A stretch of DNA of 63,330 nt, filler included, from Folioceros fuciformis (lineage: Eukaryota), in NCBI GenBank assembly GCA_049999805.1. It is 5 parts of 5 records of this genome, joined end to end, with 100 filler letters (N's around TTAATTAATTAA, not from the genome) between each part and the next. Parts side by side here need not be neighbours in the genome. Positions count along the whole stretch, not along the records: positions 1 to 17,357 come from JBNGIO010001490.1; 4 more parts are not named here. One strand, 5' to 3'. Every line of letters begins with the position of its first letter. Within the stretch, counting starts at the first letter, position 1. Shown piece after piece: positions 5,441 to 42,224 of this stretch. Position numbers and translations under genes: made by a program. Under the pieces are notes generated by a model. It made no database searches. It was not told the origin of the DNA and saw only the letters and a program-made list of their open reading frames with translations.

Positions 5441-7019
5441 AAGGGAACAACTCAAGGGATTAGCTTACAAATATCGATATGGACAACATACTTGTGATAT
5501 AAAATTTGTGACCCCTTGCATGTGGGGTTGTCTTAGGTCATCACAAGCATGACCGCATTGGCTTGGTGTGCCCTACTTATGGAATAGGTATAGGAACTAC
5601 TAGTGCACTGTTTTTCTCAACCGTATAATTATACAAGAATATACTACATCATCTTGGTCCTCATTTGCTCCATGTCATCTAGGGAATACCAATGTGATCA
5701 AGAGATGTGTGATATAAAATTTTATTTGTCCCACATATAGTTTGGAATGTGGAATTCTCGTCTTTACAAACATGACTATATCAGCGATTTGCGGCAATCT
5801 AGGCTTTATGATTGGGCCACACCAACTCCTGATGATATATGCTTTCTAACACTCTATCTTAAACCACATATACCTTTTAGCACACTATCTTACAATGACA
5901 TATGCTTTCTAGCACACTATCTTGACATAGATTTTTTTTTCAGTCACAAACCCCACTTGCAATAGGATACTTCTTAAGATTTCAACAATCTTGGGACAAC
6001 ACACCAAGTGAACATGTTCGCTTTTGCTACCATGGCCATGATTACAAGAGCATTTTTCCTCCCTCTTCATACAATTCGTAGACCTAGGGGGGAATGAAAT
6101 CTCATATCTTTATTCCATACCCTATGAGGACAAGCTGAAGGTACACAAGCATTCATTGCAAAACACACACCCATTGATGCCATAGAGCGAAGAAGGCATA
6201 TATATATCTTCATCTCCATGGACATTGTCTGCTTCTACATTCTTAATGCACGCAATCTTCACCAATGATTCTAGGAATTCCCTAAATATGATTCTTTATC
6301 CTACATACCTTAACACCATTGAGATTATCGAACTCATATTAGCTAATAACAATATTAGATCTCCACACTTGGGCCTCATCCCGTTTTGAGAATTGTTTGT
6401 GACTAAGGTACTCAATAGAAGTCGCAAAATACAAAATACAATTGTGAGCAAGGAGGTAAAGCAACGAAAATGTAGGAAACATTCATAAGTGTGGCATTGC
6501 GATAAGGTATCACCATTAGAAGCCATATTTGCATGAAATACAACATCATTAGCAAGCTTGGGATCGGGCTTCCTCTTGTGGCTAGCTTCCTACTTCATTA
6601 CACATAGATTATATTCCATGGAGTGCAACCTGAAGGTCCTTTTAAATGTAGGCAATTCGCAAGTGTCTAGGTAGGGCATTTGCTTGCGCTTCGCACACAA
6701 CTAGTCAAGTGGAGTACTCCACATGACACAAGACACCGTTCTGATATGGAACATGCAAACTTCTAATCAATTTGCACTAATGGGGGGACCAAGATGACAC
6801 GATTATGTTTGTGATGGTTAGAAACCACTGCCATACGTGGAGGTTGCAAATTTATTATCACAACCAGGTTGTCCTTATATGTATCCCATGGAGGGCATCT
6901 TCATGCAACCATCATAACTTTTTTATGTTACACAATTTTCTTTCTCACACAAGTGAGAAGCATATGCAATCAATTTTTTCCGACACAAGCCATGACTCTA
7001 TGTCACACTTGTTACATTT

Positions 7020-7250
7020 CTAGCCGCGGAGGACCTACGTAGCATATTGCTAAAGGTAGGGTCATATTCTTGGTCATAGGGGAGTTATAGACCCAACACA
7101 TTGCCAAAGGTAGAGTCACATTCGTAGTAGTGAAGCTATGCAACAGACTATAATCGTGGAGGAGCTATGTAACACATTACCAAAGGTAGGGTCATATTCA
7201 TAGCCGTAAAGGAGCTACGTAGCACATTGCCAAAGGAGTGTCATATGGAG
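7020..7250. repeat. Degenerate tandem repeat (~55-70 bp unit, about 4 copies) in AT-rich TE-like DNA
   Basis: Recurrent GGAGCTACGTAGCACATTGCCAAAGGTAGGGTCATATTC. Confidence 0.75.
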
Positions 7251-8459
7251 AAGGGATATAGTACATTGATAGAGGTTAAGGGGAAAGACAAGATAGGGTC
7301 TTACCATAACGGCAGCCGTTCCAAAGATGCAGCCATTTTCTTTTACATCTTGGGTCTTCTCAAGACAAAGTTGCAATGGCCAATGAAGCTTAAACGGATG
7401 ATGGCGCTACTATCCTCACCAACCTACAACATCTAATGGAGATGTGTGCATGTACCAACTTTGTAGATAGATGGCCTATATCGAGCACCTCCCATGCATA
7501 GATGGCATAAAAATGCTCAATACTAACTACTACAATTAAGGGGTTTTTTTACAACATGTGCGTCATCTAATGCAATGTTTAAGTACATTTTCCTAATACA
7601 ATGTTAATGCCCCTACCTACTACAATGTTAGTGTATCTAGATGCCTACTACAATGTTAGTGCGTCTAGGCACCTATTGCAATGTTGGCGTCTTTGCCTAC
7701 TGTAATATTGATGTGTTTGTTAGAAGACTTAAAGGGAGAATTAGATCTTGGCAACCTTGAGATTTGCACATAGAATCTTGAGAGCTACTAAAGCGAATTG
7801 AATGTTTTGCTGGAGCTTGTTTTGCTAGAACTCCAGCAACTGGGCTCCTTGCTTCCTTGCAAAGTCATTCGAAAAGTTTTCACACAAAGTCTTTTGGTTG
7901 CAAATGACTAGCCTAAAAAGTGAAGGCATATGTAAGTTTTCTCTAGCATAACAAAACAAGATACTACAAATGACACCTGAATTTCATTTGCAATGCTTGC
8001 ACATTTCACTGGAGGTGTAATCGGAAGCTAGCCTACAAACTTGTTGGCCTCTAACTACATGGCTACCGAGGTCTAGTGTGATCAACTGGTTAAAGGATAT
8101 GTCCGCCAACTTGCTATGGTGGCGCAAACATGACAAACTTGAAGAAACCTTAAACCAAGTTTTTTAACATGTGCTTATGTCTGGGGTTGTCATACAAAGT
8201 TATGAGACAAAGCCGTAGGAACAAAAACAAGGCATATGTTCCTTCTCGGTTCACAACCTTGAAGAGACAAGGAACATATGAGAGCTTGTAGATGTAAGCT
8301 TGGTGATATGGAATTGTAGAAGACTACGAAGATCATAAGATCTCGAGGCATATTCACTGTATAATATGCACTTGAGGTTGAGAAAAAAAAATCACGTATC
8401 CTTATTCCATACCTCTATGATGTAATTTCAAATTCAGTTATAATTATTAAGAACAATCA

Positions 8460-11400
8460 ATGGAACAACTAGAATGTACAGAATTCGGATACCTCATATT
8501 TGGCTTGCCAGGTCGAGGGAGAATGGCGGTCAACCAACAACGCTTTCGTCTCAATGCCTTGCCATCGAATTTTCCACTGACAGAAAATGCAGGCGAGAAG
8601 CGGGCGGGATTTAGTGGCGGATCCGTGTACCCCAGATGCCCGCCAGGTAATGGACGTCGGGTTCATTCTGAGATGCACGCAGCGCTTCCTGGACTGGAGA
8701 ACTGCAAAGGAGGAGTTGCGCCAAACGAGGTGCCGGAGGTTTTGTGGCGAGGATTTTTTAGAAGTTCTACACCGTGGAAGGATAGCAGGCAGGAGAAGAG
8801 AAGCCCTAGCCATCCTGACTTCAGGCACAAAACATCCCAGCAGGCACTGTGGCTGGACAATGCAGGCAAGCCTGCGTGGGATCCTGAAGGAGGAGGTCGG
8901 AGTAAGGGGTGGCAGGGAGCAGGAGCCCTGGGAGAGATGTCAACGGGGAATGGCAATGCTGCAGCTCCACCTTCGTCGGTTGAGCAGGAAAGCCGAGACG
9001 AGGTTTTGTGGCAGGATTTGTTCTCCGACCCCGCTCTCTGGTGGGACAATAGGAGAGAGAAGAGGAGCCCCCGTCATCCTGATTTCAAGCACAAGAGGTC
9101 CAAGGTGGGTTTGTGGCTGGACAACTCGCACAAGCCTGCCTGGGTGGACACGAAGCTTGCCACCTTGGATGAACTGGGAGTTGGGCTGAGTGGGAATTCC
9201 GAGGGTGAAGGCTCGCGAGGACTTTGCTGGGAGGGAGAGCTTGTGGATGCCGTCGGCGCGTTGGATCAATTGGTGCAGATGAAATCCTCTGTTGATACCT
9301 CAGTCTTCAGTCGGCTGCTGAAGAGATGCACGGAAGCAAGGGATCTGGTTCTTGGCAATCGTATCCACTCCCTTGCTGGTCAGGCTGGGTATGATTCAGA
9401 TGCATTCGTTGCCAATCATCTCATCCGGATGTATACTTCCCATGGGAGGTTGGAGGAGGCAAACCAGGTCTTCAATAAGGTGCGTGCACCAGACAACCAT
9501 ACGTGGGAGGCCATTATTTCAGCACATGCTCAATATGGCCAGTTCGTGCAAGCCATAGGTCTCTATCGACAAATGCGGCGAGACTCGTTGGTGAAGCCGA
9601 ACAGCTATGTCTTTGTGGCTGTCCTCAAGGTGTGTGCTGGTGCAGCTGATTTGGCCTCTGGGAAGGAAGTTCATGCTGATATGTTGAAGAGTAAAGTTGA
9701 ACCCAACGTGTACTTGGGAAGCTGCTTAGTAGACATGTATGCCAAGTGCGGGAGCATACAGGATGCTCGCATGGTTTTTGACAGTTCAGCAGAAAAAGAT
9801 GTGGTGACATGGAATGCTATGATGACAGCTTACGCTCAGAATGGTCTGGGTCAAGAGGCCCTCAATCTTTATGCAAGTATGCTAAAGGACAGCTCTATGC
9901 AACCCAACCTTGTAACATATATGTGCCTGCTCAGGGCGTGTGCTAGCATCAAAGCGTTGGAGCAGGGTAAGCAGCTGCATGCGGAGGTCCAAAAGAAAGG
10001 CCTGCAAGCTGATGTGTTTATTGGCAGTTGCCTGGTGGACCTGTATGCGAAGTGTGGAAGTTTATTGGATGCTCGTCACGTGTTTGACAAACTGCCTACA
10101 AGAGATTTGGTGACCTGGAATGTCATGATCTCAGGGTATGCACAGCAGGAGATGGGTCGAGAAGCCCTTGACCTTTATGGTTGTATGCGGCAGGAAGGCA
10201 TTATCTCAGCCGATCACGTAACATACGCATCCCTCTTGAAAGCTTGTGCCAGTACCGGAGCTGTGCATGAAGGCAGAAAGCTTCATTTAGAAATTCAGGA
10301 AGCAGGGCTGGCGGCTGATATGGTTGTTGGGAGTTGCCTGGTGGACATGTATGCAAAATTCGGTAGTTTAGAAGATGCTCGCAGAGTGTTTGATGCGTTG
10401 TTAAGAAGAGATGTGGTGACATGGACTTCTATTATTGCAGGATATGCACAGCAGGGAATGGGTCAGGAAGCCCTGGCTCTGTATGCACGAATGCTAGGAG
10501 ATGGCATGACTCCAGCTAATAATGTCACAATTGTCTGCCTTCTGCAAGCATGCGCCTCTGTCGGTGCGTTGCATCAAGGAAAGCAGCTTCATGCTCAAAT
10601 TCGGGAACGAGGTTTAGAATCCGATGTGGTTATCGGCAGCTGCTTGGTGGACATGTATGCAAAGTGCGCAGACCTGAACGAAGCTCGGCGAGTGTTTGAC
10701 ACATTGTCCGTGAAAGATGCAGTGACATGGACCGCTCTGCTTAATGGGTACGCTGAACATGGTGAGGCCCAAGTGGCCATGGATTTTTTTGATGAGATGC
10801 GGCAGCACGGAGTCAAGCTTGATGATGCCATCTTCACGAGTCTTCTTGTGGCATGCAGTCACTCGGGCCGGATCACTGATGGGCAGCGATACTTCTTGCT
10901 GATGAATGAAAATGGCATTATGCCGACTGTCAAACACTATGTTTGCATGGTAGACTTGTTTGCACGCTCGGGCCAATTAGATGAGGCAGAAAATCTGTTG
11001 CTGACCATCCCGTATGAAAGTAGCGCAGCAGGTTGGACGTCTCTGCTGAGTGCCTGCAAGAACCACGGTGACGTCGTGCGGGCAAAACGATGTTTCCACC
11101 GGCTTGTTGAATTGGAGCCTGGCAATGCGTCCGCATATGTGCTCCTTGGTTATACGTATGCCTCTGCTGGCAGGTGGGAGGCTGTGGAGGAAGTAGAAAT
11201 GTTGAGGAAGGCTGCTGGAGCTTGGAAGAAGCCTGCGAAGGCGTGCATTGAAGTGAAGAACGTAGTGCACGAGTTTACAGTTGGTGAAAGTAGGCCTGAT
11301 ATCTCATCCGGCCTGAGAACCTTGAATATGAAGGTGAAGGACGAGGGAGGCCATGTGCCCAAGAAAGAGTTGGTGTTGAAGTCTATGTCCGACAGCGAGA

Positions 11401-11630
11401 AGGAAGATGCATTATGTGGGCATGCAGAAAAACTTGCGTTGGCATATGGTCTTCTGAACACCCCAGATGGCACTCCTCTGTTAGTAACCAAGAATCTGCG
11501 CATGTGCGATGACTGCCACAGCAGCACCAAGATCATGTCTCGGCTGGAGAAGCGAGAAATCATAGTTAGAGACGCCCATCGGGTGCACCGCTTTATCGAT
11601 GGCTCTTGCTTATGTGGCGACCGGCATTGA
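8460..11630 (+). CDS. PLS-class PPR protein with E1-E2 and DYW:KP (DRH-ending) domain and two N-terminal OSB-like PDF motifs; putative organellar U-to-C RNA editing factor; intronless
   Basis: About 17 P/L/S repeats (e.g. VVTWNAMMTAYAQNG, GSCLVDMYAKCG), E1/E2, KP box KKPAKACIEV (11226-11255), HAEKLA (11421), CDDCH (11505), C-terminus CLCGDRH*. Start could be 8460 or 8523. Confidence 0.95.
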   Translation: MEQLECTEFGYLIFGLPGRGRMAVNQQRFRLNALPSNFPLTENAGEKRAGFSGGSVYPRCPPGNGRRVHSEMHAALPGLENCKGGVAPNEVPEVLWRGFFRSSTPWKDSRQEKRSPSHPDFRHKTSQQALWLDNAGKPAWDPEGGGRSKGWQGAGALGEMSTGNGNAAAPPSSVEQESRDEVLWQDLFSDPALWWDNRREKRSPRHPDFKHKRSKVGLWLDNSHKPAWVDTKLATLDELGVGLSGNSEGEGSRGLCWEGELVDAVGALDQLVQMKSSVDTSVFSRLLKRCTEARDLVLGNRIHSLAGQAGYDSDAFVANHLIRMYTSHGRLEEANQVFNKVRAPDNHTWEAIISAHAQYGQFVQAIGLYRQMRRDSLVKPNSYVFVAVLKVCAGAADLASGKEVHADMLKSKVEPNVYLGSCLVDMYAKCGSIQDARMVFDSSAEKDVVTWNAMMTAYAQNGLGQEALNLYASMLKDSSMQPNLVTYMCLLRACASIKALEQGKQLHAEVQKKGLQADVFIGSCLVDLYAKCGSLLDARHVFDKLPTRDLVTWNVMISGYAQQEMGREALDLYGCMRQEGIISADHVTYASLLKACASTGAVHEGRKLHLEIQEAGLAADMVVGSCLVDMYAKFGSLEDARRVFDALLRRDVVTWTSIIAGYAQQGMGQEALALYARMLGDGMTPANNVTIVCLLQACASVGALHQGKQLHAQIRERGLESDVVIGSCLVDMYAKCADLNEARRVFDTLSVKDAVTWTALLNGYAEHGEAQVAMDFFDEMRQHGVKLDDAIFTSLLVACSHSGRITDGQRYFLLMNENGIMPTVKHYVCMVDLFARSGQLDEAENLLLTIPYESSAAGWTSLLSACKNHGDVVRAKRCFHRLVELEPGNASAYVLLGYTYASAGRWEAVEEVEMLRKAAGAWKKPAKACIEVKNVVHEFTVGESRPDISSGLRTLNMKVKDEGGHVPKKELVLKSMSDSEKEDALCGHAEKLALAYGLLNTPDGTPLLVTKNLRMCDDCHSSTKIMSRLEKREIIVRDAHRVHRFIDGSCLCGDRH
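8742..9146 (+). other. Two tandem PDF motifs (OSB-family ssDNA-binding motif) within the PPR ORF: 8742-8879 and 9006-9146
   Basis: LWRGFFRSSTPWKDSRQEKRSPSHPDFRHKTSQQALWLDNAGKPAW and LWQDLFSDPALWWDNRREKRSPRHPDFKHKRSKVGLWLDNSHKPAWV match the LW..FF..P..WWDNR..K.NP..PDFKHK....LW signature of plant OSB proteins (recognised from memory). Confidence 0.88.
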
Positions 11631-11699
11631 TTTCGTGCCGTGTTGAGACAGCCTGTCGATTATCGTGAGCCCTTGAGGCTCACCCGGAGCATCAGATGA

Positions 11700-12600
11700 G
11701 CCTGCTCGAAGGATCTTCCGGGTGCACCCTTCATCCTGTAACAGAAGAGTTCCTGGGGAGGTGCCAACGAGGGTGCCAAATTGGAATGAGACCAAGGCCG
11801 ACAGGCACTCTGTTCGACGCCAGGTCCTTGGGCACGTGGGAGCAAAACAAAGATGTATACATATACAAGGACTGTATGGCAGCTCCTCGAGTTTGTTGCC
11901 GCTGCAGAAGGTCGCCTAACATTTTGAACTCCACTGGGAGATCGTGCAATGGAGTGAACCCACACTCATGCACCCAACGGGCACTGTAGCGAGCACTTGC
12001 TGTTAGCCGAATAAGGTCAGCGTTTGTGCCACACTGAAAACACAGGAGGAAACTAAGGGTCATGTTGGGAACCACATTCCTTTCCGCCATGACTGTCCGC
12101 AAGCTGTTATTCCTCTCAACGTCACTCCCACTTTCGCACACGTCTTGGCTCTGCAAGAATGTCCCTGCCTCACCACATGGAGGGACAGAGAAAGCCTCAT
12201 TGCCAGGGATGATGTCAGATGCCCACAGGCACCGGCTGGGGGCCCTTCTTCTCTAACCGCATGCTAGCAGGAGACAAGAAAAGATGCCGTCATCATGTAT
12301 AACAAGCTGCGTCGTCTGGATGTACAAGATTTCCTTTCTCACATCATTGCGCGCAACGTAGCCATTGAGTCTAGCACACGTCGTGGGTGTCATATCCATC
12401 TCCGGTACCTATATGCAGACCTTGTCCTCTAACATCTGCGCCTACAATGAGGCTTCCTCGTGCATTCCTCTCTCGAGCATGTGCTCCAATCAAAGACACA
12501 TGGTCAAATCAAGACATTCTCCAGGACACCAGTTACATACCTTGGTCGGCCCACTTTGAGTTTTGTGTACATTTGCGTCCAGGTGCACGAGGCCACGCTT
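11700..12600 (-). pseudogene. Decayed PLS-PPR gene fragment, tail-to-tail with the intact PPR gene
   Basis: Minus-strand fragments in shifting frames: HDDGIFSCLLLACG* (~12255-12300; compare DDAIFTSLLVACSH in the neighbour) and MAERNVVPNMTLSFLLCFQCGT...RWVH. Frameshifts and stops present. Confidence 0.6.
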
Positions 12601-13699
12601 GCCCAGCACAGTAGCCTCAAGCTTGCCTTCCACACCAAGCTCTCAAGCTTGCCTTTTGGACACTAGGCTCACCTAAGACACTTGACAAGTAAATCTTGAC
12701 ATACCCAAGGCTTGTGCGCACAAGCACTTATTATGGCTCCCATGCCGGGAATGACATATCATTTTTTATTTTATATATATTAATTAACTATTCAACTAAT
12801 CATCAAAATGAAGGCTAATACTATGATTTAATTTGCTCTATGTGATCTGCAATAACTTTTTGCATGCATTTGTGTTTCATATCTCGTTGTTCTATAACCT
12901 AGATTTTATATTTAAAATAATATATATGTAATAAATAGTCATTAATATAGAAAAGTTTAATTTGTAACCCAAATCCTGAATGAAAGCAAAGTAGTGTACG
13001 ATGTGAAACAAGAGTTAACAAGGAACAGCTTTATAAGTCTCCAAATTATACAAGATATATGTATGGAAGACTATAGACAGAGAAAAGTTGTTCCATATAT
13101 TATGACTTCAATATCAAGTATAATGTCGTGCAGGCTTGATGAACATCTTGTCAAGACTTCACACTTTGGCCCTTGGACAACATGAAGATGACAACAACAA
13201 CTAAACAACTAGACGATGCCTCAAGTGTTGTTACTGAAGGACAATTATGACATTGCTTGTTCAATGTAAACTTCTAGCAAGAGTTAGGCACCACAAGTGG
13301 AGGGACAAGGGCTACCCAAGCAAGTAGGTGACCAGCAATTGAGGACACATCTACCACCGCAAACAAAGTGGGCAGTGATTGAGTATATCTCAGACAAAAT
13401 AGATGTACTTGAGCAATCAAGTGGGGTAGCAACAACTATTTTGTACGATTCTCTATGACAACCTACTATTATAGAGGAAGTGATGTGGCTAGTTGCCTAA
13501 ATATCAAGATACTGACGAAGAAGTACATGCCATACTTGGTCATGCCATTAAGAAGATTTGCCAATGACAATAATAGAGGATTCCCAAGGACTAGCTACCA
13601 CCATGAGAGACTTGAAGTAAGTAGTGCTAGTACTCTTAGACCACGTAGAACTATTCCATTGGAGGACAATAGTAGAGCCCATAGGACTATATACCGCCA

Positions 13700-20116: not shown

Positions 20117-21166
20117 TTAGGGCACATACATGACCATGTGATTGGTGATGTGGGCTTTACAAAAGTCACAACAATATGAGGTGATGCCCACCTTGTTTTC
20201 TTCTACACAAGAGCTGCAATACAAACTATGTAAGCAAGGAAGGAAGATCGTGTCCCTTGCTTGCACCATGCAACACAAGCACATACTTTTCTTTAGTTCT
20301 TCTTCTACGTCGCTTTGTAGCTTGAACATTGTACTAGCTCCAAGCCGAAGTTGTGAGACCTTTTCTTCTACCATATTCTTCTCATCTCTAAGTTTTAAGA
20401 GGTCCTCTACTTGTTCATAGATCATTACAACTCTACCCATGAGCATATCCTCAAGAGTTCTTTCCAATCTTCTTTTTTTCTGCTCCAATGTCCGCAACCT
20501 TTCACATAATAGTGTTGTCTCGTTGCTCTGCAAGTCCATGTCCTCTTCCCCAAGTGCTTCCCCAAGTGCTTGGTAGAAGTCACGCTTTCTGCGCTCTCTA
20601 CGAATGTCCTGAATCTCTTTAACGGCTTGCTTCTCCCTTGAAGTAGTTTTTTGTTCTATTATGTTGTTTGTATCAATATTGTTAAACCTTAAAGTTCCAT
20701 TTTTCCTTTGTAAAATTCTTTTTTTCTCCACAAGTTTTTTAAAGAGCTCTTCATCAGGGAGGATCACATTCTTAGACACATGCACTTCTCTCCTATTTTC
20801 TTCACGCTCTATACACTCATTGTGAATAATTACAAGTGTGTCCTTTTGCTCCTTCAATGTGGCCTTTGCCAACATAAATGCACTCAACAGCTTTTGCTGC
20901 TTAGCACCTGGCATTTTGGTCATTGTCCTCTCCCTTTCTCGTATCACCATGTCTACCACCTTGGTCTCCCAATCTTGCACAATGTTTTCTTGCTCCTCTA
21001 GCTTATCTTGTAGGATGTTGTCAGACAACATCTTTAGGTTCGCAATTAGCAAGCTAACCTCCCTATGCTTCTTGTTTGCCATTGATGAGGCAATTACCAT
21101 ATTGATGGAACAACCAAGTACTAGACCTAGACAGGGGCTGGTTATAAGGTAGGCGCTAGACAACAA
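20117..21166 (-). CDS. Intronless coiled-coil protein with C-terminal C3HC4 RING finger (IAP/BOI-like RING); putative E3 ligase
   Basis: E/K/R-rich heptads, then CLCCMVQARDTIFLPCLHSLYCSSC...CDFCK. True ATG probably ~21082-21103. Confidence 0.75.
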   Translation of the reverse strand: MLSSAYLITSPCLGLVLGCSINMVIASSMANKKHREVSLLIANLKMLSDNILQDKLEEQENIVQDWETKVVDMVIRERERTMTKMPGAKQQKLLSAFMLAKATLKEQKDTLVIIHNECIEREENRREVHVSKNVILPDEELFKKLVEKKRILQRKNGTLRFNNIDTNNIIEQKTTSREKQAVKEIQDIRRERRKRDFYQALGEALGEEDMDLQSNETTLLCERLRTLEQKKRRLERTLEDMLMGRVVMIYEQVEDLLKLRDEKNMVEEKVSQLRLGASTMFKLQSDVEEELKKSMCLCCMVQARDTIFLPCLHSLYCSSCVEENKVGITSYCCDFCKAHITNHMVMYVP

Positions 21167-28329: not shown

Positions 28330-29070
28330 CAGAATGCATAGCGAAGGACCGATAGGTTGTGCGTCCGTTGAGAGGAAAGAACTCCAGTCTGACTGGCTTG
28401 GCCCGGTCCACCACACCATGCCGTGCAACGTCCACAGGGCCTGCATGCATATGGCACGCAGTTCCAGACTGCCAGAGGCCTGACTGGAACAGTCTTGCGT
28501 GCTGGAACAGCAAGAGACAAAAGTCCCATGCACAATTAAATTAATGAGCACGCCGAGAGTGGATTTGATGCCATGCTGTTCAGCCATGGAATCGAAGCGT
28601 TCGCAACCCCCCGACTTCATGCCACCACCGAAAGGTAAGTAGACGTGGTATCACATTTAGTACTGGAACGTAGCACATCACGAAAACAAGCGATTGCTTG
28701 GCCACCGTTATGGCAAATACCAGAGTCACATATGGATCAGCCACACATCACCACAACTTTTGTGGATGAAGCCATCGACCGCCTTCCAGTTCGCACATTT
28801 GCATCTATGTCCTAGACACCTGCAGTTTCCGACAGAAACCAGCGGCAGTTGCCAAGAGAAGGATATCTGACAGTTCTCTTCGCACAATTTGCACGTTCAG
28901 CTGCTTGCTCAGAGGCAAGGCACTACCAGTGGTTGCACAGGCCTTCAGAACACAAGCTAGAGTTAGACGCTCGGCCACAATCAGGCCCTCCAGCTCCATT
29001 TGGGCAATATTGAAAACAACCTCACTCGCTGCCGCAAGTGCGGGAGTGTAGACATCTCCAGGGTACCAAC
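28330..29070 (-). pseudogene. Decayed PLS-PPR (E-class) gene
   Basis: Fragments LTLACVLKACATTG...KQLNVQI (L motif), a frameshifted CL/DIDAKCAN (S motif), MAEQHGIKST and TACHMHAGPVDVAR (E1-like). Confidence 0.7.
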
Positions 29071-29079
29071 AGATAGAAT

Positions 29080-29650
29080 GATCGAGATTAATACTCTCGA
29101 AGAAGGATCGAGCAATCGAAGGACCACGTTGCAGCCAACAAGGTGGAGGACAAACTTGGAGTGATCCGCAACGAACGCAGCGAGAGTGAGCGCAACCAGG
29201 AGGAGGTTGAGCATTCGAGAGGAAGGCAAATTGGGGGGGGCAGATGCTCACATGTCTGTGGCGGGTGCAAAGCTTCCTTCCGTCCTTTTGCAAATACTTC
29301 CCTTTCTTCCTTCGAAAGCGAAAGCAGGCCTTGCTGCTGTGGGAGAGGGAGGCAAGGGATGTTGCTTTGCCTTCCAAGCTTTGGAGGATAGAGGACGGGG
29401 AGGGCGAAGTTGCGAGAAATTTCTTGCTTAAACCGAATCGCTGCGCTTAAGGATTCAGGATGAGTTTCTTGCAAGTCGAGACCGATCAGGACATGCTACT
29501 TGTAGACCTGGAAGCTGAGCGAAAGCAGAAGCCTATTTGCGAGATGTATTTTCTGGAGGAAAGGAACACCGTTGTCATACCTCGCTTTCATTGCCTGTTT
29601 CGCAGATTCCTCCTCACCGGATCGAGGGCTGTGTATATGCCGCCCTATAA
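29080..29650 (+). pseudogene. Decayed paralog of the coiled-coil/RING gene at 20117-21166
   Basis: EDKLGVIRNERSESERNQEEV vs KDTLVIIHNECIEREENRREV; DLEAERKQKPICEMYFLEERNTVVIPRFHCLF vs DVEEELKKSMCLCCMVQARDTIFLPCLHSLY. Several Cys lost, frameshifts present. Confidence 0.55.
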
Positions 29651-31626: not shown

Positions 31627-32754
31627 CTACTCAGCTTCAAGCTCAGCACCAAAGCGCTCCAGCCTGACCTCGTCTTCCGCGGCATCACGAAACGCCGCAT
31701 AATTTACGGCTCCGTCATCCTCAAAAGCGATCACCTGCTTCCCACCAAACCACCGTCCATTCATTAGCTTTATACACTTAACGCCTGCTTGCTTGTCCTT
31801 GAACTTCACCATTGCGACTCCTTCTGGATGGTTGTCGTACACACGCAGCCTCTCAATCGCCCCTAACTTCCCACATTCCTCAGCTATGTCTGCTTCCAAT
31901 TCAGCCAGCAGATTAGGGTCCGCTAACAACTCGTCCCTGGTGAACATGTTCTTGAGAATAACAGTCATGGGCTCCAACGGCTTGGCATCATCAAAGCCTC
32001 CCCACCCAAGCGCCCTCTGCTCGATGTTCTTCATCTTCTTCTTCTTCTTCTCATTCTGCTGCTTCTTGACGAACACCTCGCCCTTCTGCTCAAATTTAGC
32101 CCTCGTCACAGTCATCAGAGGCCTTCCCCCGGGCCGCAGAGCCGTTCCGTCCAATATCTTCAGCGCCAGCTCCACCGAAGGCTCCTTCAGAAAAGTTACC
32201 AGCCCATCTCCCTTCAGCCTGCCAGTATTCTTTTCCACATACAACTTCACCCTCGGCTTCTTGGTGTCCAAATCCTCCTTGATGTATCCGCACTTGGAGA
32301 ACACCGACACCACCTCCTCCACAGTAGCATCCTCCGGCAGCCCTGTGACATACACATGCGTGTTCACCTTCAGCTCAAACCAGCCTTCGGGCTCGTTGGA
32401 GCCCGGCTTCTTCGCCTCGCCCTGCACCCCTTCCACGCCCTTCCGTTTCTTCCTACCAGGCGCAGTAGAATCCTCGACCTGAACCACCGGCCCTTCATCT
32501 ACATCCGCAGCTGCAGCCGCTTCGTGCACCGCCGACTCCTGAATCGCCGCCTTCAAGCTCGGCATCACCTCCTCCTCCTCCACGAAAGTCATCTCGTCCG
32601 CGCCGTACGAGGGGCCGCCATCGCCTGGAACACTGTCCCCCTGAGGAACCCACGCCTTGAGCTCAGCATCCCACCTATACAACGTGCCGTCGTCATCTAA
32701 AAACTCCTCCTCCCCTTCCGGAGGCATAGCCGGTCCCTCCTCCCCAAACCCCTC
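31627..32754 (-). CDS. HTATSF1: Tat-SF1/CUS2-like splicing factor (U2AF-associated protein 2; Arabidopsis ELF9-like), RRM + UHM; 5' end truncated by contig edge
   Basis: WFELKVNTHVYVTGLPEDAT, KGDGLVTFLKEPSV, VILKNMF, MNGRWFGG. Frame is open up to the N-run. Confidence 0.92.
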   Translation of the reverse strand, partial: EGFGEEGPAMPPEGEEEFLDDDGTLYRWDAELKAWVPQGDSVPGDGGPSYGADEMTFVEEEEVMPSLKAAIQESAVHEAAAAADVDEGPVVQVEDSTAPGRKKRKGVEGVQGEAKKPGSNEPEGWFELKVNTHVYVTGLPEDATVEEVVSVFSKCGYIKEDLDTKKPRVKLYVEKNTGRLKGDGLVTFLKEPSVELALKILDGTALRPGGRPLMTVTRAKFEQKGEVFVKKQQNEKKKKKMKNIEQRALGWGGFDDAKPLEPMTVILKNMFTRDELLADPNLLAELEADIAEECGKLGAIERLRVYDNHPEGVAMVKFKDKQAGVKCIKLMNGRWFGGKQVIAFEDDGAVNYAAFRDAAEDEVRLERFGAELEAE

Positions 32755-34997: not shown

Positions 34998-37900
34998 TCA
35001 GAGGCTTTCTCCTTCATGGTTACCATCCGTGTTTTCTACCTCATTGTTCCCAACCGTGATCATGTCGTCTAGTTGTTCAGGAAAAGGAGCTGCTGCAACT
35101 GCTCTTAATACCTGGGCACCCTTTGTGCCAGCTTGACTTGTTCCCTTGCGCTTTGTGTTCTGACCAAAGAGTGCGTTCCTCATCTCCACGCACAGTGTAT
35201 CAAGCTGTCGGAGACTCTTCCTCAGCCGCAGTCCTGCAGATTTGTTTCCTGTGTACGTTTGGACAGCTTCTGGGTGGTTCTCGATCATCAGCTCACACAT
35301 CCCATTGTATAGTTGAGCCACACAGAGTCTACTGGGGCTATCATCAAACAGCGACGTCGAGATCTCCTCAGGTGTCAACGCAGAGATGGTGGCATGCACC
35401 CGGGTAGTGGAGCTCTTGGAATGAGGTTGGACGTGTGCCTGCGCACCTGCTGTATTTTCATGCCCATTACTCTTGTGGTATTCCGCATTCAGGACTTTCT
35501 CCAAGAGCAGGAGTCGCTTCTTCAGAAACTCCACCATCCTCTTCTGCACCTGTGCCTCAGAAGTTTCTTTCAGAGAAGCAGAAAGGGGTTCTGATTCCGA
35601 GCTCATCTCAGTCTCAGCCCGCACGTGTTTTTGATCCTTACTGACCATGCTGTCAGTTCGCACGCTGAGTTCCAAGCGGAGAGCTGGCTGCAGCAGAAGG
35701 TCCATATCCTCTATGATTGGCTGCCATCTTCCATACCCATGTTTTACAATACCCTGAAGCAGCATGCTGTCATGCTCTTCCTTCCACACCTTCGTGTTCC
35801 TGTACGCGGAGCTCTTGAGATGGCGAACAGTTGCTGAAAACAAAGGTGCTTGCGGATTCTCCACTGTTGACTTCACTTTGCTCCGAATGAGATGCAGAAT
35901 GGCCAGGCGGACGAGAACATCTTGAATGCGCAGACCCTCTTTGGGAACTCCGTCTGAGAATGTGGGTGACTCAGTTACGCGCTCAGCAATGTGGCTCAGA
36001 AACAGTGTGCCGTAGTTCCTTATCTCCTCTGCACTCTTTGGCTTCAACTTTGGAACAAATTCTATCCAGCTGAAGTCACCCAGTCCGAACCTCATGAGAA
36101 GCTGGACAAACACAGACCTTTGCTTCTGGTTGAAGCCCAAAATTCTTAAGGATCGTCCGTCTCCTGCCATCAGAGGGGGCGGACCGGGCAGTGTTCGTCG
36201 GGCTCTCTTCCTGGAAGCTGTAGGCTTCTTTGGGGTGGTAGCAACCCCTCCTGCCTCTACTACTGGCCTCTGGGCGGCGTCAGGAGCTACTGGGGTAACA
36301 CGAGGTATTGGAACAGGTTTAGGTGTTGGTGCTGGACAGGCTTTGGCAGAAGACACAGGTCTGGATGTCGGCCTTTCTTCATCGTCCGAACTAGTGGTAG
36401 CCATTCCCGACAAGAAATCATCGGTTGTATACATTGACAGCTGCATCACCTGCTTCCTGCTTCTCTTTCCCTTCCCCAGCTCCTCAACGCCCTTTAGCTC
36501 TTGCTCATCGACCTGACCCTTGAGCAGATTCTCCCAATAGGCAGCTCTTGCTAACTCTTCACTCCCCGGATTCAACTTCTCGGTTTCCTTGGGTGGTGAC
36601 TCTACAGTGTCGTCGTCATTCAGATACTCAAAATTGGCTACCTTGAATGCATCCAGTAAATGGCTGTCATCTTCCTCGCCAATGCGTGGTTCACCACTGT
36701 CCACGTGAGAACGGTCTAGCAATCTGTCTATGGCAGCATCGTCATAGTGGATTCTGCGTGCGTGCTGAGCGTCGTCTGTGTCTTCTGCAAACACCTCTGC
36801 TGCCCCGTACCGAAGGATGTCATCCAATTCTTCCTGGTTCAACACTTGTGTTTTCATCCTTCCAACCACCAGGTGCTCAAGCACCATCTTCTTCTTGGTC
36901 ATCTGCATCATCCTCTCCTCTATGGTCCCCCTGGTCACGAGTCTGAATATCATCACCTTGCTTGTCTGCCCAAGGCGGTGAGCACGAGCCATTGCCTGCA
37001 AATCCGCATGCGGATTCCAGTCACTATCATAGATCACCACAGTGTCCGCAGACGCAAGGTTGATCCCCAAACCTCCAGCCCGAGTAGACAGCAGGAAACA
37101 GAAACGCTGCGAGTTGGCGGCATTGAACCTGTCGATCCGAATCTGTCTTTCCAGCCCATTCACCTTCCCATCAATCCGCTCGTACCCCCATCTCCTGAAA
37201 GTCAGCCAGTCCTCTAGTACATCGAGCATCTTCGTAAACTGCGAGTAGATGAGCACCCTGTGTCCCCCGGTCTTCAGCTTTTCCATCATCTTGTCCAACA
37301 ACATCAGCTTCCCAGATGCCTCCACCATCACCTGCAAAGCCTCAGGACTCCTCGATGCCGGCTGCCCTGCTTCCAGAAGGTAAGGATGCCCACACACCTT
37401 CCTAAGCTCCATCACCACATTGCTGAGAGAGATCTGAGGACCGCAATGGCGGGACAAGACCTGATAGTTTCTGGCTAATACAGCCCTGTAGAAGTCCTTC
37501 TGCGCAGCACTCATCTCCACTCTCAGAATGAGCTCCTTCTTGGGAGGCAGCTCCTTCAGCACATCCTTTTTAACCCTCCGCAGCAAGTGAGGCGCCAGCA
37601 TTTGGTGCAGCCTTGCCACCTGCTCCTCCTGGTTGATGTTGCTGAACTCCTGTTGGAAGGCTTCCAGACTTGAAAACTTGCCTGCATCAAGGAAATGCAT
37701 CAACATGAAGAGCTCATCCAAATTGTTCTGCAACGGGGTGCCCGTCAGCAGAACCCGGTGTTGGGTAGTGAACAGCTGCAGAGTCTGGAACAGCTTGGAG
37801 TCCTTGTTCTTCAGGCGATGGCCCTCGTCTACAATCAGGCACCCCCATTTGAAGTTCTTCAAGATGGCCGTGTCCGAGTTGACCATCTCGTAGGATGTGA

Positions 37901-39170
37901 GAAGCACATCGAACTTGACCTGCAACTGCCTGATCTGCTTTGCATTCGGCCGCTTCTCCTTCTTGCGGGGGCGATAGAACTCGTACTTCCTGATGATCGC
38001 ACGAGCCTGCGTCGTCCCTACGTACAGCACAACGTTCATCTGCGGAGCCCAGAGCGAGAATTCACGCTCCCAGTTTCGCAGAGTGGACAGAGGTGCCACA
38101 ACCAAATGCGGAGACACGCAATCCTCTTCGAATAAGGATGTGAGAAAGGAGATGCTCTGAACCGTTTTGCCCAGCCCCATCTCATCTGCGAGGATGACAT
38201 GCTTCCCCTGCTGCCAGGCAAATCTGAGGAAGTTGAGGCCCTCCAGCTGGTACGGATGTAGCACGCCTCCAGGCAGGAACCCGGGTGTGGATTCGAAAGG
38301 ATTGAAAATCTTTCTCCGCTTCCGCCCATCTTTGGCAGCATCCAAGGCAAGCCCCTTCCTTTTCCTCGATCCTGCCCGGTCTCTGATGGAAACGTACCTG
38401 TCGATCTGGGCCTGGAATGGCGCAATGTCCGATGCAACCTCCCACGTCGACTCCTCGTATCCCAGCTCCTTCCACTTCACCAAGTACTCCTCCACCTCCG
38501 CGTTCGTCCGGTAGTGCAGAATCCGATCCACGCTGGTCCACTCCGCCCGCACGGGATTCCGTTCCTCGTCACTCACATTCTGCAGCCTCAAGGCTTCCTG
38601 CTGCCGGTGGAAATGGCTGAGCTTCATCCTGATCCCGTGAAACATCTTGGCAGCCTTGTCGAGCCTGTCCTCCGGCAGCCAGGTGCAGTGCAGATAGGAC
38701 CTGGATTTCCACTTCACCAGATAGTGTCTCCCCAGGGAAGGCATGCTCTCCACATCTTCCCCCGACTCCAGCTTCGTCGGCCTCAGTTGGCAATCCAGAA
38801 TCTTATCCATCTCTGCCATGGGGTCTACACATTTTGGGCAGCTCCAGGAGCCTCTGGGTACAGTCTTGAGAGGAGGATCCAGGCATCCCAGATGATAGAC
38901 AGCCGTGCAGGTATCACAACACAGAAGCTCCCCTTCCTGCCCGCAGAAGCTGCAGAAGTCCTCACTCTGCTCCATCTTCAGCACTTCGTCGTACTCATCC
39001 CCCACAGCCATCCCACCTTCCCCAATTTCCTCCTCATCCTCCTCCCAATCTTCATGAGCCCAATTTCCGTCATCATACCGAAACGGTTTCTTCTGCGACC
39101 TCTGCCTCAGCCTCTCAGCCAGGCAGTGGGACTCCTCCACCACCTCCCCGTCATTGCACCCTTCCTCCAT
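34998..39170 (-). CDS. PKL: CHD3-type chromatin remodeller PICKLE-like (PHD, two chromodomains, SNF2 ATPase, helicase C-terminal, DUF1087/DUF1086 region); single exon
   Basis: PHD CSFC..CCDTC..YHLGC..CPKC; YLVKWK twice; [65 protein letters not shown]. Confidence 0.95.
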
Positions 39171-40115: not shown

Positions 40116-42224
40116 ATTTTGGTGTCACTGGCCTCCGACGATCACATTCTGACTGCCATTGAAGAGGTGTTTCCACGCAACAGCGCATTCCAGCACAAAC
40201 TACACAATGTGACTGCTCTGAATACGGAGGCTGCCACAAAACTGTTCACCCTGCACGCAATCGGCCTGCCGGCGGACCAGTCGGTGGTGGAAAAACTCGT
40301 TGCCTGCTGTCACGGCGTCCCTTTGAAGCTTAAGGCCTGCGGGGCAAATTGGCCAGCTGTGCTCGACAGTCTGACCAAAGCTGAAGGTGATTTGGAGCTC
40401 GTCGTGGACGTAAGAACTGGGATGTCCAGCGTACAGCCTTCGTATCGTGTACCGGCATTCGGGGGATGGACCGATAGTCTCAGAGGGGCGGTCGGTGAAC
40501 CGTTGGAGAGGGGAAAAGTGGGAATGACTAAGCGCCAGCCCAGCAGCTTGAAGGTCGACGTGGTCGGAGCCCTGGATGAAGAGCTGCAGAATGCTCTGGA
40601 TGACATCCAAAGCTTGCTTTCTGGTTGGGACTGGAAGACGGTGGAGGCCATCCTTGGTACGGACCTTGATCATGGGAAGGACTTGATGAAGAAGCTCGCC
40701 GCTCGGTCTCTCATATACCCCAAGCTGAGCAATGGGCGGGACTTGGGTCCGGTAGCCAACCTTACCAGATACTCAGGGCCAGGTCCTTGGAAGACCAATG
40801 TGGTGGCTGCAGATGAGCACGTCCCGCGGCGGTGGAACACCATTTCCGGTCTGGTAGAGCTGGATCGTCCTGAGGCTGTCACACCGGACAGAATCCAGGG
40901 TGTGAAGTATCTGGTGGTGCACAACAGTTCACTTGACGGGACATCTTCCCGTCACCTTGCTGATTTGAAGTTCCTGTACTGGAGTGTGCGCAAAATTGTT
41001 GAGTCCACACCCTTCACATTCCCGTTCCAGGAAGCTGGTGTCTTACCAAAGTTGAAGCTGCTCATCATCAGTGGCAATCTCCATATCGATCAGTTCACGG
41101 TAGGTTTCTCCTCCTTCTCTTCTCCATCAGGTTATGGAGTCCATGGCAGACTGTGAGCTGATTCTCACGGACTTGCTGTTGATGACGTCCAGATACCTTC
41201 ACCGCTGCCCCGGCTCATCCTTATCAAGTGCGGTGCAAGAGAGCTACCGGAGGCCATGTTTCACTCAAGGAAGCTGGAAGAGCTCCGCCTGAGATACTGT
41301 CCTAAGCTGGCAAGCCTCCATCTCCCTCAAAGGAACGAACACCTGCGAACCCTATGCCTGGAGAGATGCCCCGATCTCACAACCTTGCCCAAAGCCATCG
41401 CCGGTTTGAGAGCTCTGGAAACCCTGGAGCTGCTGTCATGCGACGGCTTGATGAATCTGGAAGCAGAGGGCGTAGGGGATCTGGAGAATCTACGGGTCCT
41501 GTCCGTTATCGACTGCAACAGCCTTACGGCACTGCCTCACGACCTCAAAAATGTGTCCACACTAGAGTCCTTGAATCTATCCTTCTGCAGCAAGCTTGGG
41601 GGATTGCCGCCGATCGGTTGGGGTCTGGGAAGTCTGGAAAACCTCGATCTCTCAGGATGCTCATCGATATACGAGCTGTCACCCGACATCAAGATGCTCA
41701 AATCTCTGAGCAGACTGAGGCTGGTTGCCTGCTCCAACCTGGCGTTTCTCCCAGACGAGATCGGAGAGTTGCGAAACCTGAAGGACCTGGAAATGGGTTT
41801 CTGCATACGAGTGCAACAGCTGCCGGTGAGCCTCATCAACCTGACGTCTCTCTGTAGACTAACTCTTACCAGTTGTTCCAGTCTGAAGGAACTGCCGAAA
41901 GGATTGGACGCGTTGGGGAGCTTGGAATACCTCAATCTTCTGGGCTGCCGGTCTCTGGATGTGTCCAAGATCGCGGAGGTGATCCAAAAGCTTCGCAACA
42001 ACATGGCCGTTGTGCACGCAGAGCCATCCGACTTGCGGACCAGTTACCCCGGGCCAAAGGGGAGTGATACTTGGTCGGCGAACTACAGGTCCTATCCGCC
42101 TGGAAACGTCCGAAAGCAGTCTGGCACATCCGAAAGCAAGAACTACCGTTCTGCACCTGCTGCGTCTAGTCATCCGATGGAACGTATGACTACGAGGAAT
42201 GCACAGAGCAGTATCGGTGAGTAG
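40116..42224 (+). CDS. NLR-type immune receptor (C-terminal NB-ARC portion + LRRs), 5' truncated, one intron 41100-41192
   Basis: RNBS-C-like LNTEAATKLFTLHA, GLPL-like CHGVPLKLK, LAARSLI, then about 9 LxxLxLxxCxxLxxLP repeats. The phase-0 GT-AG intron joins the two ORFs in frame. Confidence 0.85.

Follow-up and report, generated by a model that had tools for sequence, protein, structure and literature searches.

The usual picture of editing factors of the PLS class of pentatricopeptide repeat (PPR) proteins shows a transit peptide followed by a PPR array and an E/DYW end. The DYW:KP subclass is marked by KP in place of PG, a KP-specific HAE, a 133-amino-acid form without xHP, Lys88, and M92 in place of V95; DRH and GRP are two hornwort variants of its C-terminal triplet, and Lys88 is essential for U-to-C conversion (PMC9478123, PMC11845758). 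By one account, the activity of natural KP proteins is not yet known (PMC11845758). In OSB proteins, an OB fold is followed by one to several copies of the PDF motif, a module of 50 amino acids (PMC6963530, PMC4166229). In AtOSB1, the PDF motif is sufficient for binding of single-stranded DNA (ssDNA) (PMC6963530), and OSB1 and OSB2 prefer ssDNA to double-stranded DNA or RNA (PMC4166229). Here, we describe a gene of Folioceros fuciformis in which the two meet. It lies at 8460..11630 in a stretch of 63,330 nucleotides (the window) made of parts of five records of assembly GCA_049999805.1 joined end to end. Our analysis showed, at the level of sequence, that this nuclear gene is intact and encodes a PLS-class PPR protein whose DYW:KP domain, of the DRH kind, is complete at 133 amino acids; ahead of the PPR array stand two motifs of the OSB type. 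The gene is composed of the following features:

8460..11630, plus strand: whole coding open reading frame, 1056 amino acids plus stop, without an internal stop; no intron is required

8460..8735, plus strand: N-terminal presequence, amino acids 1-92, without a Pfam match; 0 Asp, 8 Arg, and 13 Gly

8736..8894, plus strand: PDF motif 1, amino acids 93-145 (hidden Markov model envelope); 102.4 bits with profile A1 and 42.5 bits with the OSB-only profile

8895..8999, plus strand: Gly/Ala/Ser-rich linker between the PDF motifs, amino acids 146-180, predicted to be disordered (AlphaFold2)

9000..9161, plus strand: PDF motif 2, amino acids 181-234 (hidden Markov model envelope); 106.4 bits with profile A1 and 64.9 bits (E 4.8e-13, Z=1.84e9) with the OSB-only profile

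9240..11018, plus strand: PLS-type PPR array, amino acids 261-853; about four P1-L1-S1 triplets spaced by ~102 amino acids, then P2 (10719), L2 (10821), and S2 (10923)

11019..11228, plus strand: E1 (amino acids 854-886) and E2 (amino acids 887-923), TPR-like; Pfam E_motif at amino acids 869-930, E 3.7e-12

11229..11627, plus strand: DYW:KP domain of 133 amino acids (924-1056); Pfam DYW_deaminase at amino acids 964-1054, E 7e-34

An in-frame stop stands just 5' of the reading frame at 8448-8450, and the stop-to-stop segment begins at 8451. The second in-frame ATG encodes M22 at 8523, which may be the true start instead of 8460. Amino acids 1-92 are presumed to form an organelle targeting peptide. 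The original prediction, made from this DNA alone, had placed two tandem motifs at 8742-8879 and 9006-9146 in one uninterrupted frame; both intervals fall inside the envelopes listed above, and the motif string that it gave was correct. We regard the architecture of the protein and the homologies of its parts as close to certain.

The two repeats resemble each other (8736-8879 versus 9000-9143; 29 of 48 residues identical, BLASTP E 7e-21), and no Pfam family matched the first 280 amino acids at E<=10. Word-indexed homologue searches with the PDF region returned P0002 and P0003 alone and no OSB, a limit of sensitivity that was overcome by profile search. A first profile was composed of the two PDF motifs of the window and one motif each of P0002 and P0003, and its search of 1.84 billion representative proteins yielded 1002 matches at E<=1e-3, 383 at E<=1e-10, and 42 at E<=1e-30. 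Most of these matches are 250 to 600 amino acids long and carry the PDF motif once to several times near the C terminus. Among 20 matches that were looked up, those with informative names were an OSB2-like protein of Asparagus (P0038, 4.5e-32), OSB3 of Anthurium (P0054, 1.6e-27), and OSB3 of Amborella (P0010, 3.6e-60). In the reverse direction, an OSB-only profile, built from the 10 PDF motifs of these three named angiosperm OSB2/OSB3 proteins alone, matched the window protein with 101.8 bits (E 1.5e-24, Z=1.84e9), with domains at amino acids 95-140 (42.5 bits) and 183-233 (64.9 bits), motif 1 being the more diverged copy. On profile tests in two opposite directions, the motifs are OSB-type PDF motifs, as had been proposed. 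Like those of OSB proteins, which also occur in one to several copies, they contain W, D.R..K, PDF(K/R)HK, LWL, and P.W; the fused motifs share KPAW, whereas the OSB profile reads tPeW. Across four aligned fused motifs, 20 columns are invariant, and the aromatic and basic residues of the OSB motif are retained. No further PDF motif was found in any of the six frames of the window.

OSB proteins have an SSB-like OB fold followed by C-terminal PDF motifs, whereas in the window protein the PDF motifs are N-terminal to a PPR array and only 92 residues precede motif 1. When the N-terminal parts of 86 OSB proteins were compared with amino acids 1-95, nothing better than E 0.004 was obtained, and with the PDF region set aside, a six-frame search of the whole window gave nothing better than E 0.04. 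The latter search also ruled out an upstream OB-fold exon; run X2, from the same organism, has no cover at 6500-8371, where DNA run X1 is present (the status of X2, and of X7 below, as RNA is a tool's guess, and no run is on record as RNA). The OB fold was thus absent from the searches of Pfam (amino acids 1-280) and of OSB N-terminal parts alike, in agreement with the original prediction, and the window protein is therefore not an OSB but only a carrier of the OSB motif.

For amino acids 90-235 (8727-9164), AlphaFold2 was given an alignment of 38 short proteins with PDF motifs; in the predicted model, each motif forms a compact unit of a helix, three short strands, and a helix. The predicted local distance difference test (pLDDT) score is 91-95 over most of motif 1 and 94-98 in motif 2, with a mean of 82 for the whole model; it falls below 50 at model residues 55-66, 69-72, and 75-78 (amino acids 144-167), where the linker is predicted to be disordered. 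A Foldseek comparison of the model with the PDB gave no match (best E 5.7), a sequence search of the PDB with amino acids 90-235 gave a sole chance match to tau repeats (E 0.4), and the ESM Atlas gave no usable match. Since no solved relative of the PDF fold was detected in these searches, its mode of ssDNA binding is structurally uncharted.

Downstream of the PDF motifs, the Pfam families PPR, PPR_1, PPR_2, and PPR_3 all matched the array, with 11 stretches for PPR (E 1.9e-76) and 9 for PPR_2, and P motifs start at amino acids 347, 448, 550, 652, and 754. The names P1, L1, S1, P2, L2, and S2 were assigned by our reading of the sequence against the published PLS scheme. KPAKA stands where the PG box is expected (KKPAKACIEV at amino acid 923), and the distance from KPAKA to the last residue is exactly 133 amino acids. 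HAE at amino acids 988-990 (11421-11429) and CDDC at amino acids 1016-1019 (11505-11516) leave the HxE and CxxC zinc ligands intact, as originally noted; Lys88 of the domain is at 11490-11492, Met occupies domain position 92, and the C terminus is DRH. All features sought of a PLS-class PPR-DYW protein (P, L, and S motifs, E1/E2, and DYW with HxE and CxxC) were present, as were all those of a DYW:KP domain (KP, HAE, 133 amino acids, Lys88, Met92, and the DRH end). By these sequence marks, the protein is a well-formed DYW:KP factor of the DRH kind, which therefore makes it a candidate organellar U-to-C RNA-editing factor. It shares with the PPR-DYW:KP proteins of hornworts, lycophytes, and ferns (candidate U-to-C editors, with DRH and GRP variants and the designer proteins KP1-KP7) the PLS array, P2-L2-S2, E1, E2, the 133-amino-acid KP domain, HAE, Lys88, Met92, CxxC, and DRH. 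It differs in having two PDF motifs between presequence and array; the available descriptions of the class give no N-terminal module, and the designer proteins start at the PPRs (PMC9478123).

The same combination was found in other plants. Comparison with the PPR part of the window protein by BLASTP detected PPR repeats in 7 of the 150 best matches of the PDF profile: P0126 of Diphasiastrum complanatum, P0044 of Adiantum capillus-veneris, P0105 and P0151, which are transcript-derived reading frames of Pteridium aquilinum, and P0002, P0003, and P0108. A full-length search with the window protein listed 119 further PLS-PPR proteins, which were then scanned with the PDF profile. This is a sample and not a census, and PDF-bearing proteins are favoured in it because the search words were taken from residues 1-500 of the query, which contain the PDF region. 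N-terminal PDF motifs were present in 30 of the 119 listed homologues. By group, they were found in 22 of 28 listed rows from the lycophyte Diphasiastrum, both rows from the liverwort Calypogeia fissa (2/2), one of two from the moss Ceratodon purpureus, and one of six from the fern Adiantum; none was found in the three rows from the fern Ceratopteris, the one from the lycophyte Selaginella, or the 30 from seed plants (22 with the prefix Gb_ and 1 with PITA_, which we take to denote Ginkgo and Pinus, plus 2 from Cryptomeria and 5 from angiosperms).

The OSB-only profile (Z=1.84e9) also recognised the motifs in proteins of moss, liverwort, fern, and lycophyte, at 51-68 bits per domain. It matched P0240 of Ceratodon (61.7 bits), P0191 and P0197 of Calypogeia (62.9 and 50.8 bits), P0044 (two motifs) and P0236 of Adiantum, the Pteridium transcripts P0105 and P0151, and P0244 (three motifs) and P0126 of Diphasiastrum; P0272 and P0286 were marginal. 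By sequence, the window gene was thus shown to belong to a broad set of PLS-PPR proteins of seedless land plants with one to three N-terminal PDF motifs. The original prediction had inferred a chimeric editor, but the gene is not a one-off chimera: such proteins are numerous in public data from a lycophyte, ferns, a moss, and a liverwort. The premise of that prediction, that nothing but a transit peptide normally precedes the repeats of PLS editors, agrees with the 30 seed-plant rows but fails for seedless plants.

Public records with the same order of presequence, one to three PDF motifs, and PLS array include KAJ7570437 (P0126) and O6H91_23G059500 (P0244) of Diphasiastrum complanatum, KAI5061374 (P0044) of Adiantum capillus-veneris, M758_3G008300 (P0240) of Ceratodon purpureus, P0191 and P0197 of Calypogeia fissa, and the Pteridium aquilinum transcripts P0105 and P0151. 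Unlike the window protein, these end in a canonical DYW domain with HSE or in an E-type C terminus. All of the public PDF and PLS-PPR proteins are annotated as hypothetical or as plain PPR proteins. Sorted by C-terminal type, PDF motifs occurred in 15 of 53 listed rows with HSE (mostly with ...DYW ends), 2 of 14 with HAE, and 13 of 52 without a recognisable HxE (E-type or cut). In this biased sample, there was no sign of an enrichment in the KP class, for which the original prediction had proposed a test. The two HAE rows, P0200 (ending in DRH) and P0286 (ending in GRP), are the only ones among the 119 that join PDF motifs to a KP-type end as the window protein does. The partners of the PDF motif therefore include ordinary DYW, KP-type DYW, and E-type ends.

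PDF motifs were seen in further contexts. P0183 (Diphasiastrum O6H91_16G079700, 1362 amino acids) has PDF motifs at amino acids 142-195 and 680-733, and has the look of a model that unites two tandem PDF-PPR genes, or of an internal duplication. P0050 of Coptis chinensis (1526 amino acids) has a kinesin motor and three N-terminal PDF motifs; P0045 of Striga hermonthica (1063 amino acids), named 'Interactor of constitutive active ROPs 2', has an SSB-like part and PDF motifs; and P0004 of Kingdonia uniflora (1160 amino acids) has 13 PDF motifs. Each of the last three could be a genuine fusion or result from the merging of gene models. P0033/P0169 (MMETSP transcript), P0024, and P0091 (metagenome) are proteins of 330-450 amino acids with PDF motifs near the N terminus and no PPR similarity, and at least one of them stems from the transcriptome of a marine microbial eukaryote; other architectures with the PDF motif may exist beyond land plants.

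For 33 of the 34 fusion proteins compared, identity to the window protein was higher between the best PDF motif and motif 2 than between the PPR arrays, with means of 55% versus 43%; choosing the best of several short motifs tilts this comparison somewhat toward PDF. At the sequence level, the motif was thus shown to be better conserved than the array. On a tree of 381 PDF domains made with FastTree, presence on a PPR protein could be explained by 11 changes, while 500 shuffles of this label gave a mean of 44.9 and a minimum of 40; the low number is due in large part to the Diphasiastrum expansion. For 47 fused and 70 randomly drawn other motifs, a tree that kept all fused motifs in a single clade exceeded the free quick tree by 25 units of log-likelihood and was not rejected by the approximately unbiased test (p-AU 0.77), on an alignment of only about 54 columns. 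These trees are compatible with a single origin of the PDF-PPR fusion.

What might the PDF modules do for an editor? A PPR array with E1/E2 is described as setting the DYW domain four nucleotides downstream of its footprint, and KP-type domains as capable of U-to-C conversion via Lys88. In the window protein, the array and E1/E2 would read an RNA target and the DYW:KP domain would convert the base four nucleotides downstream, as in other editors, while the PDF modules, on flexible linkers, would act as sequence-independent anchors for single-stranded nucleic acid. The likeliest anchor would be ssDNA exposed in the organelle nucleoid, in transcription bubbles, R-loops, or replication and recombination intermediates, because OSB1 and OSB2 prefer ssDNA to RNA; anchoring there would concentrate the editor where nascent transcripts arise. 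By analogy with OSB proteins, we tentatively favour this role, an ssDNA or nucleoid anchor that concentrates the editor at sites of transcription, and our doubt about it slightly outweighs our confidence.

Several observations count against such an anchor. The preference of OSB proteins for ssDNA over RNA was measured on whole Arabidopsis OSB proteins and not on PPR-fused motifs. Three KP-type paralogues, P0208, P0215, and P0221, which are the closest listed (54-56% identical), have no PDF motif, which makes the module dispensable for KP-type proteins as such, although some of these reading frames lie on short contigs and may be cut. Physcomitrium PPR56 edits in Escherichia coli with only 14 residues before its first PPR (PMC10482289); in principle, therefore, a PLS editor can do without an N-terminal module. 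Import might also strip off the PDF region together with the presequence.

The same modules might instead bind RNA, giving sequence-independent avidity for the transcript 5' of the PPR footprint or keeping the transcript unfolded, and so aid weakly matching N-terminal PPRs in species rich in editing sites. The PDF motif is placed directly N-terminal of the array, on the side facing the 5' part of the target, its aromatic and basic residues are retained, and the fusions found come from seedless lineages. N-terminal PPRs also add little to selectivity (PMC10482289). Nonetheless, OSB1 and OSB2 favour ssDNA over RNA (PMC4166229), and we consider RNA binding a possible but rather unlikely role.

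A role in protein contacts, either oligomerisation or docking on OSB, Whirly, or other nucleoid or editosome proteins, seems improbable to us. It would suit a motif that is predicted to be a small autonomous fold on flexible linkers, and AtOSB2 is tetrameric (PMC6963530); the same source, however, ascribes ssDNA binding, not oligomerisation, to the PDF motif.

It is very improbable that the motifs are a decaying relic of exon shuffling, or part of a cleaved presequence, without a role in the mature protein. The greater divergence of motif 1 under the OSB-only profile (42.5 versus 64.9 bits) and the close KP paralogues without the motif would agree with decay. Against this, the reading frame is intact in both copies, the four aligned fused motifs share 20 invariant columns, the motif surpasses the PPR array in conservation in 33 of 34 fusion proteins, and it is retained in moss, liverwort, lycophyte, and fern proteins.

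Even less credit can be given to the proposal that the PDF modules steer the deaminase or aminase to ssDNA for conversion of organellar DNA bases. The only point for it is that the PDF motif binds ssDNA (PMC6963530), whereas a full PLS array and E1/E2 of the RNA-editing type are kept, and PDF motifs also occur on E-type proteins without any deaminase domain, which argues against a module that directly serves the catalytic domain.

That PDF and PPR parts are separate genes, or exons of different transcripts, brought into one frame by chance would find room in an unmapped transcript 5' end and in 8962-9057, which contigs of X2 leave uncovered and from which we conclude nothing, but such an artefact is scarcely believable given a frame of 1056 codons without a stop, a single contig of a related organism over 8501-11539, an in-frame 27-letter difference in two related organisms, and the PDF-then-PPR order of 30 other proteins, transcript-derived fern reading frames among them. 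The contigs of X2 are identical to the window, without gaps or joints, over 8518-8961, 9058-10665, 10639-11525, and 11510-12546, and they are missing on either side, from 6500-8371 and 12584-13500, which DNA run X1 covers without a break. In run X7, from the related organism, a single contig of 3120 nucleotides extends over 8501-11539 at ~92% identity and bridges both PDF motifs, the PPR array, and most of the DYW domain. A contig of run X4, DNA from a third organism, extends over 8501-10663. The alignments of the X7 and X4 contigs to the window both start at 8501, and in their aligned parts both differ from the window by a net length of 27 letters, a multiple of three. The Pteridium transcripts P0105 and P0151 likewise unite PDF and PPR in one reading frame. 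Altogether, these data make a reasonable but not decisive case for PDF and PPR on one unspliced mRNA. Beyond the stop codon, X2 contigs run for ~900 nucleotides on the plus strand (11631-12546) and then end, while the DNA run continues; this cover is either a long 3' untranslated region or an adjoining transcript.

The other genes of the window, a RING-finger reading frame, an RRM protein, a CHD3/Mi-2-type remodeller, and an LRR reading frame, are ordinary nuclear genes:

20117-21100, minus strand: C3HC4 RING-finger protein

28808-29446, minus strand: weak PPR-like similarity to the PPR part of the window protein (BLASTP E 6.9e-5 over 87 amino acids), the only such fragment elsewhere in the window

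31627-32727, minus strand: RRM protein with two RRM stretches

34998-39170, minus strand: CHD3/Mi-2-type chromatin remodeller in a single reading frame of 1389 codons, with PHD, two chromo domains, SNF2, Helicase_C, CHDII SANT-like, DUF1087, and CHDCT2

41256-42224, plus strand: LRR protein

The fragment at 28808-29446 may be a short or decayed PPR fragment. The CHD3/Mi-2-type reading frame at 34998-39170 is unusually free of introns for such a gene.

PPR proteins with a second nucleic-acid-related module are known, such as PPR-RRM (e.g., PPR4), PPR-SMR, PPR-NYN/PRORP, PPR-LAGLIDADG, and those with CBS or SAP. They resemble the window protein in joining such a module to a PPR tract, but they are P-class proteins with other modules, whereas the carrier here is a PLS editing factor with PDF motifs. 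The extra domains in the available part of an overview of Physcomitrium PPR proteins are RRM, LAGLIDADG, SMR, NYN, CBS, and SAP, and PDF is not among them (PMC9459714); a 2013 moss PPR paper does not mention the PDF-PPR combination. A 2026 survey of OSB proteins kept only those with an OB-fold-like domain plus a PDF domain (PMC13393729), and PDF-PPR proteins would therefore not be counted there. In the literature searched, no text linked PDF or OSB motifs to PPR or DYW proteins, with prior mention, for example in supplements, being possible. The architecture, which the original prediction could not place in any characterised family, found no description there, and PDF plus PLS-PPR is apparently undescribed so far.

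A more ambitious scenario would make the PDF-PLS-PPR proteins an old subclass of editing factors, derived from one fusion before the bryophyte/vascular split, kept in all seedless groups, massively expanded in some, and lost in seed plants. The PDF motif would couple editing to organellar ssDNA at nucleoids and transcription bubbles, and would be a helper in cis where seed plants use separate helper proteins. Taken as a whole, we hold this scenario to be unlikely.

The finding extends the PDF motif to proteins other than the OSBs from which it is known. Tool building is concerned as well: activity of natural KP-type (U-to-C) editors has yet to be demonstrated, and an N-terminal module that went unnoticed is an evident variable to include. 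Dozens of seedless-plant editors with a conserved ssDNA-binding motif would provide a concrete link between RNA editing and the organelle chromosome, and such a link would bear on where editing takes place, on how targets are found among hundreds to thousands of sites, and on what substitutes in seedless plants for the helper proteins of flowering plants.

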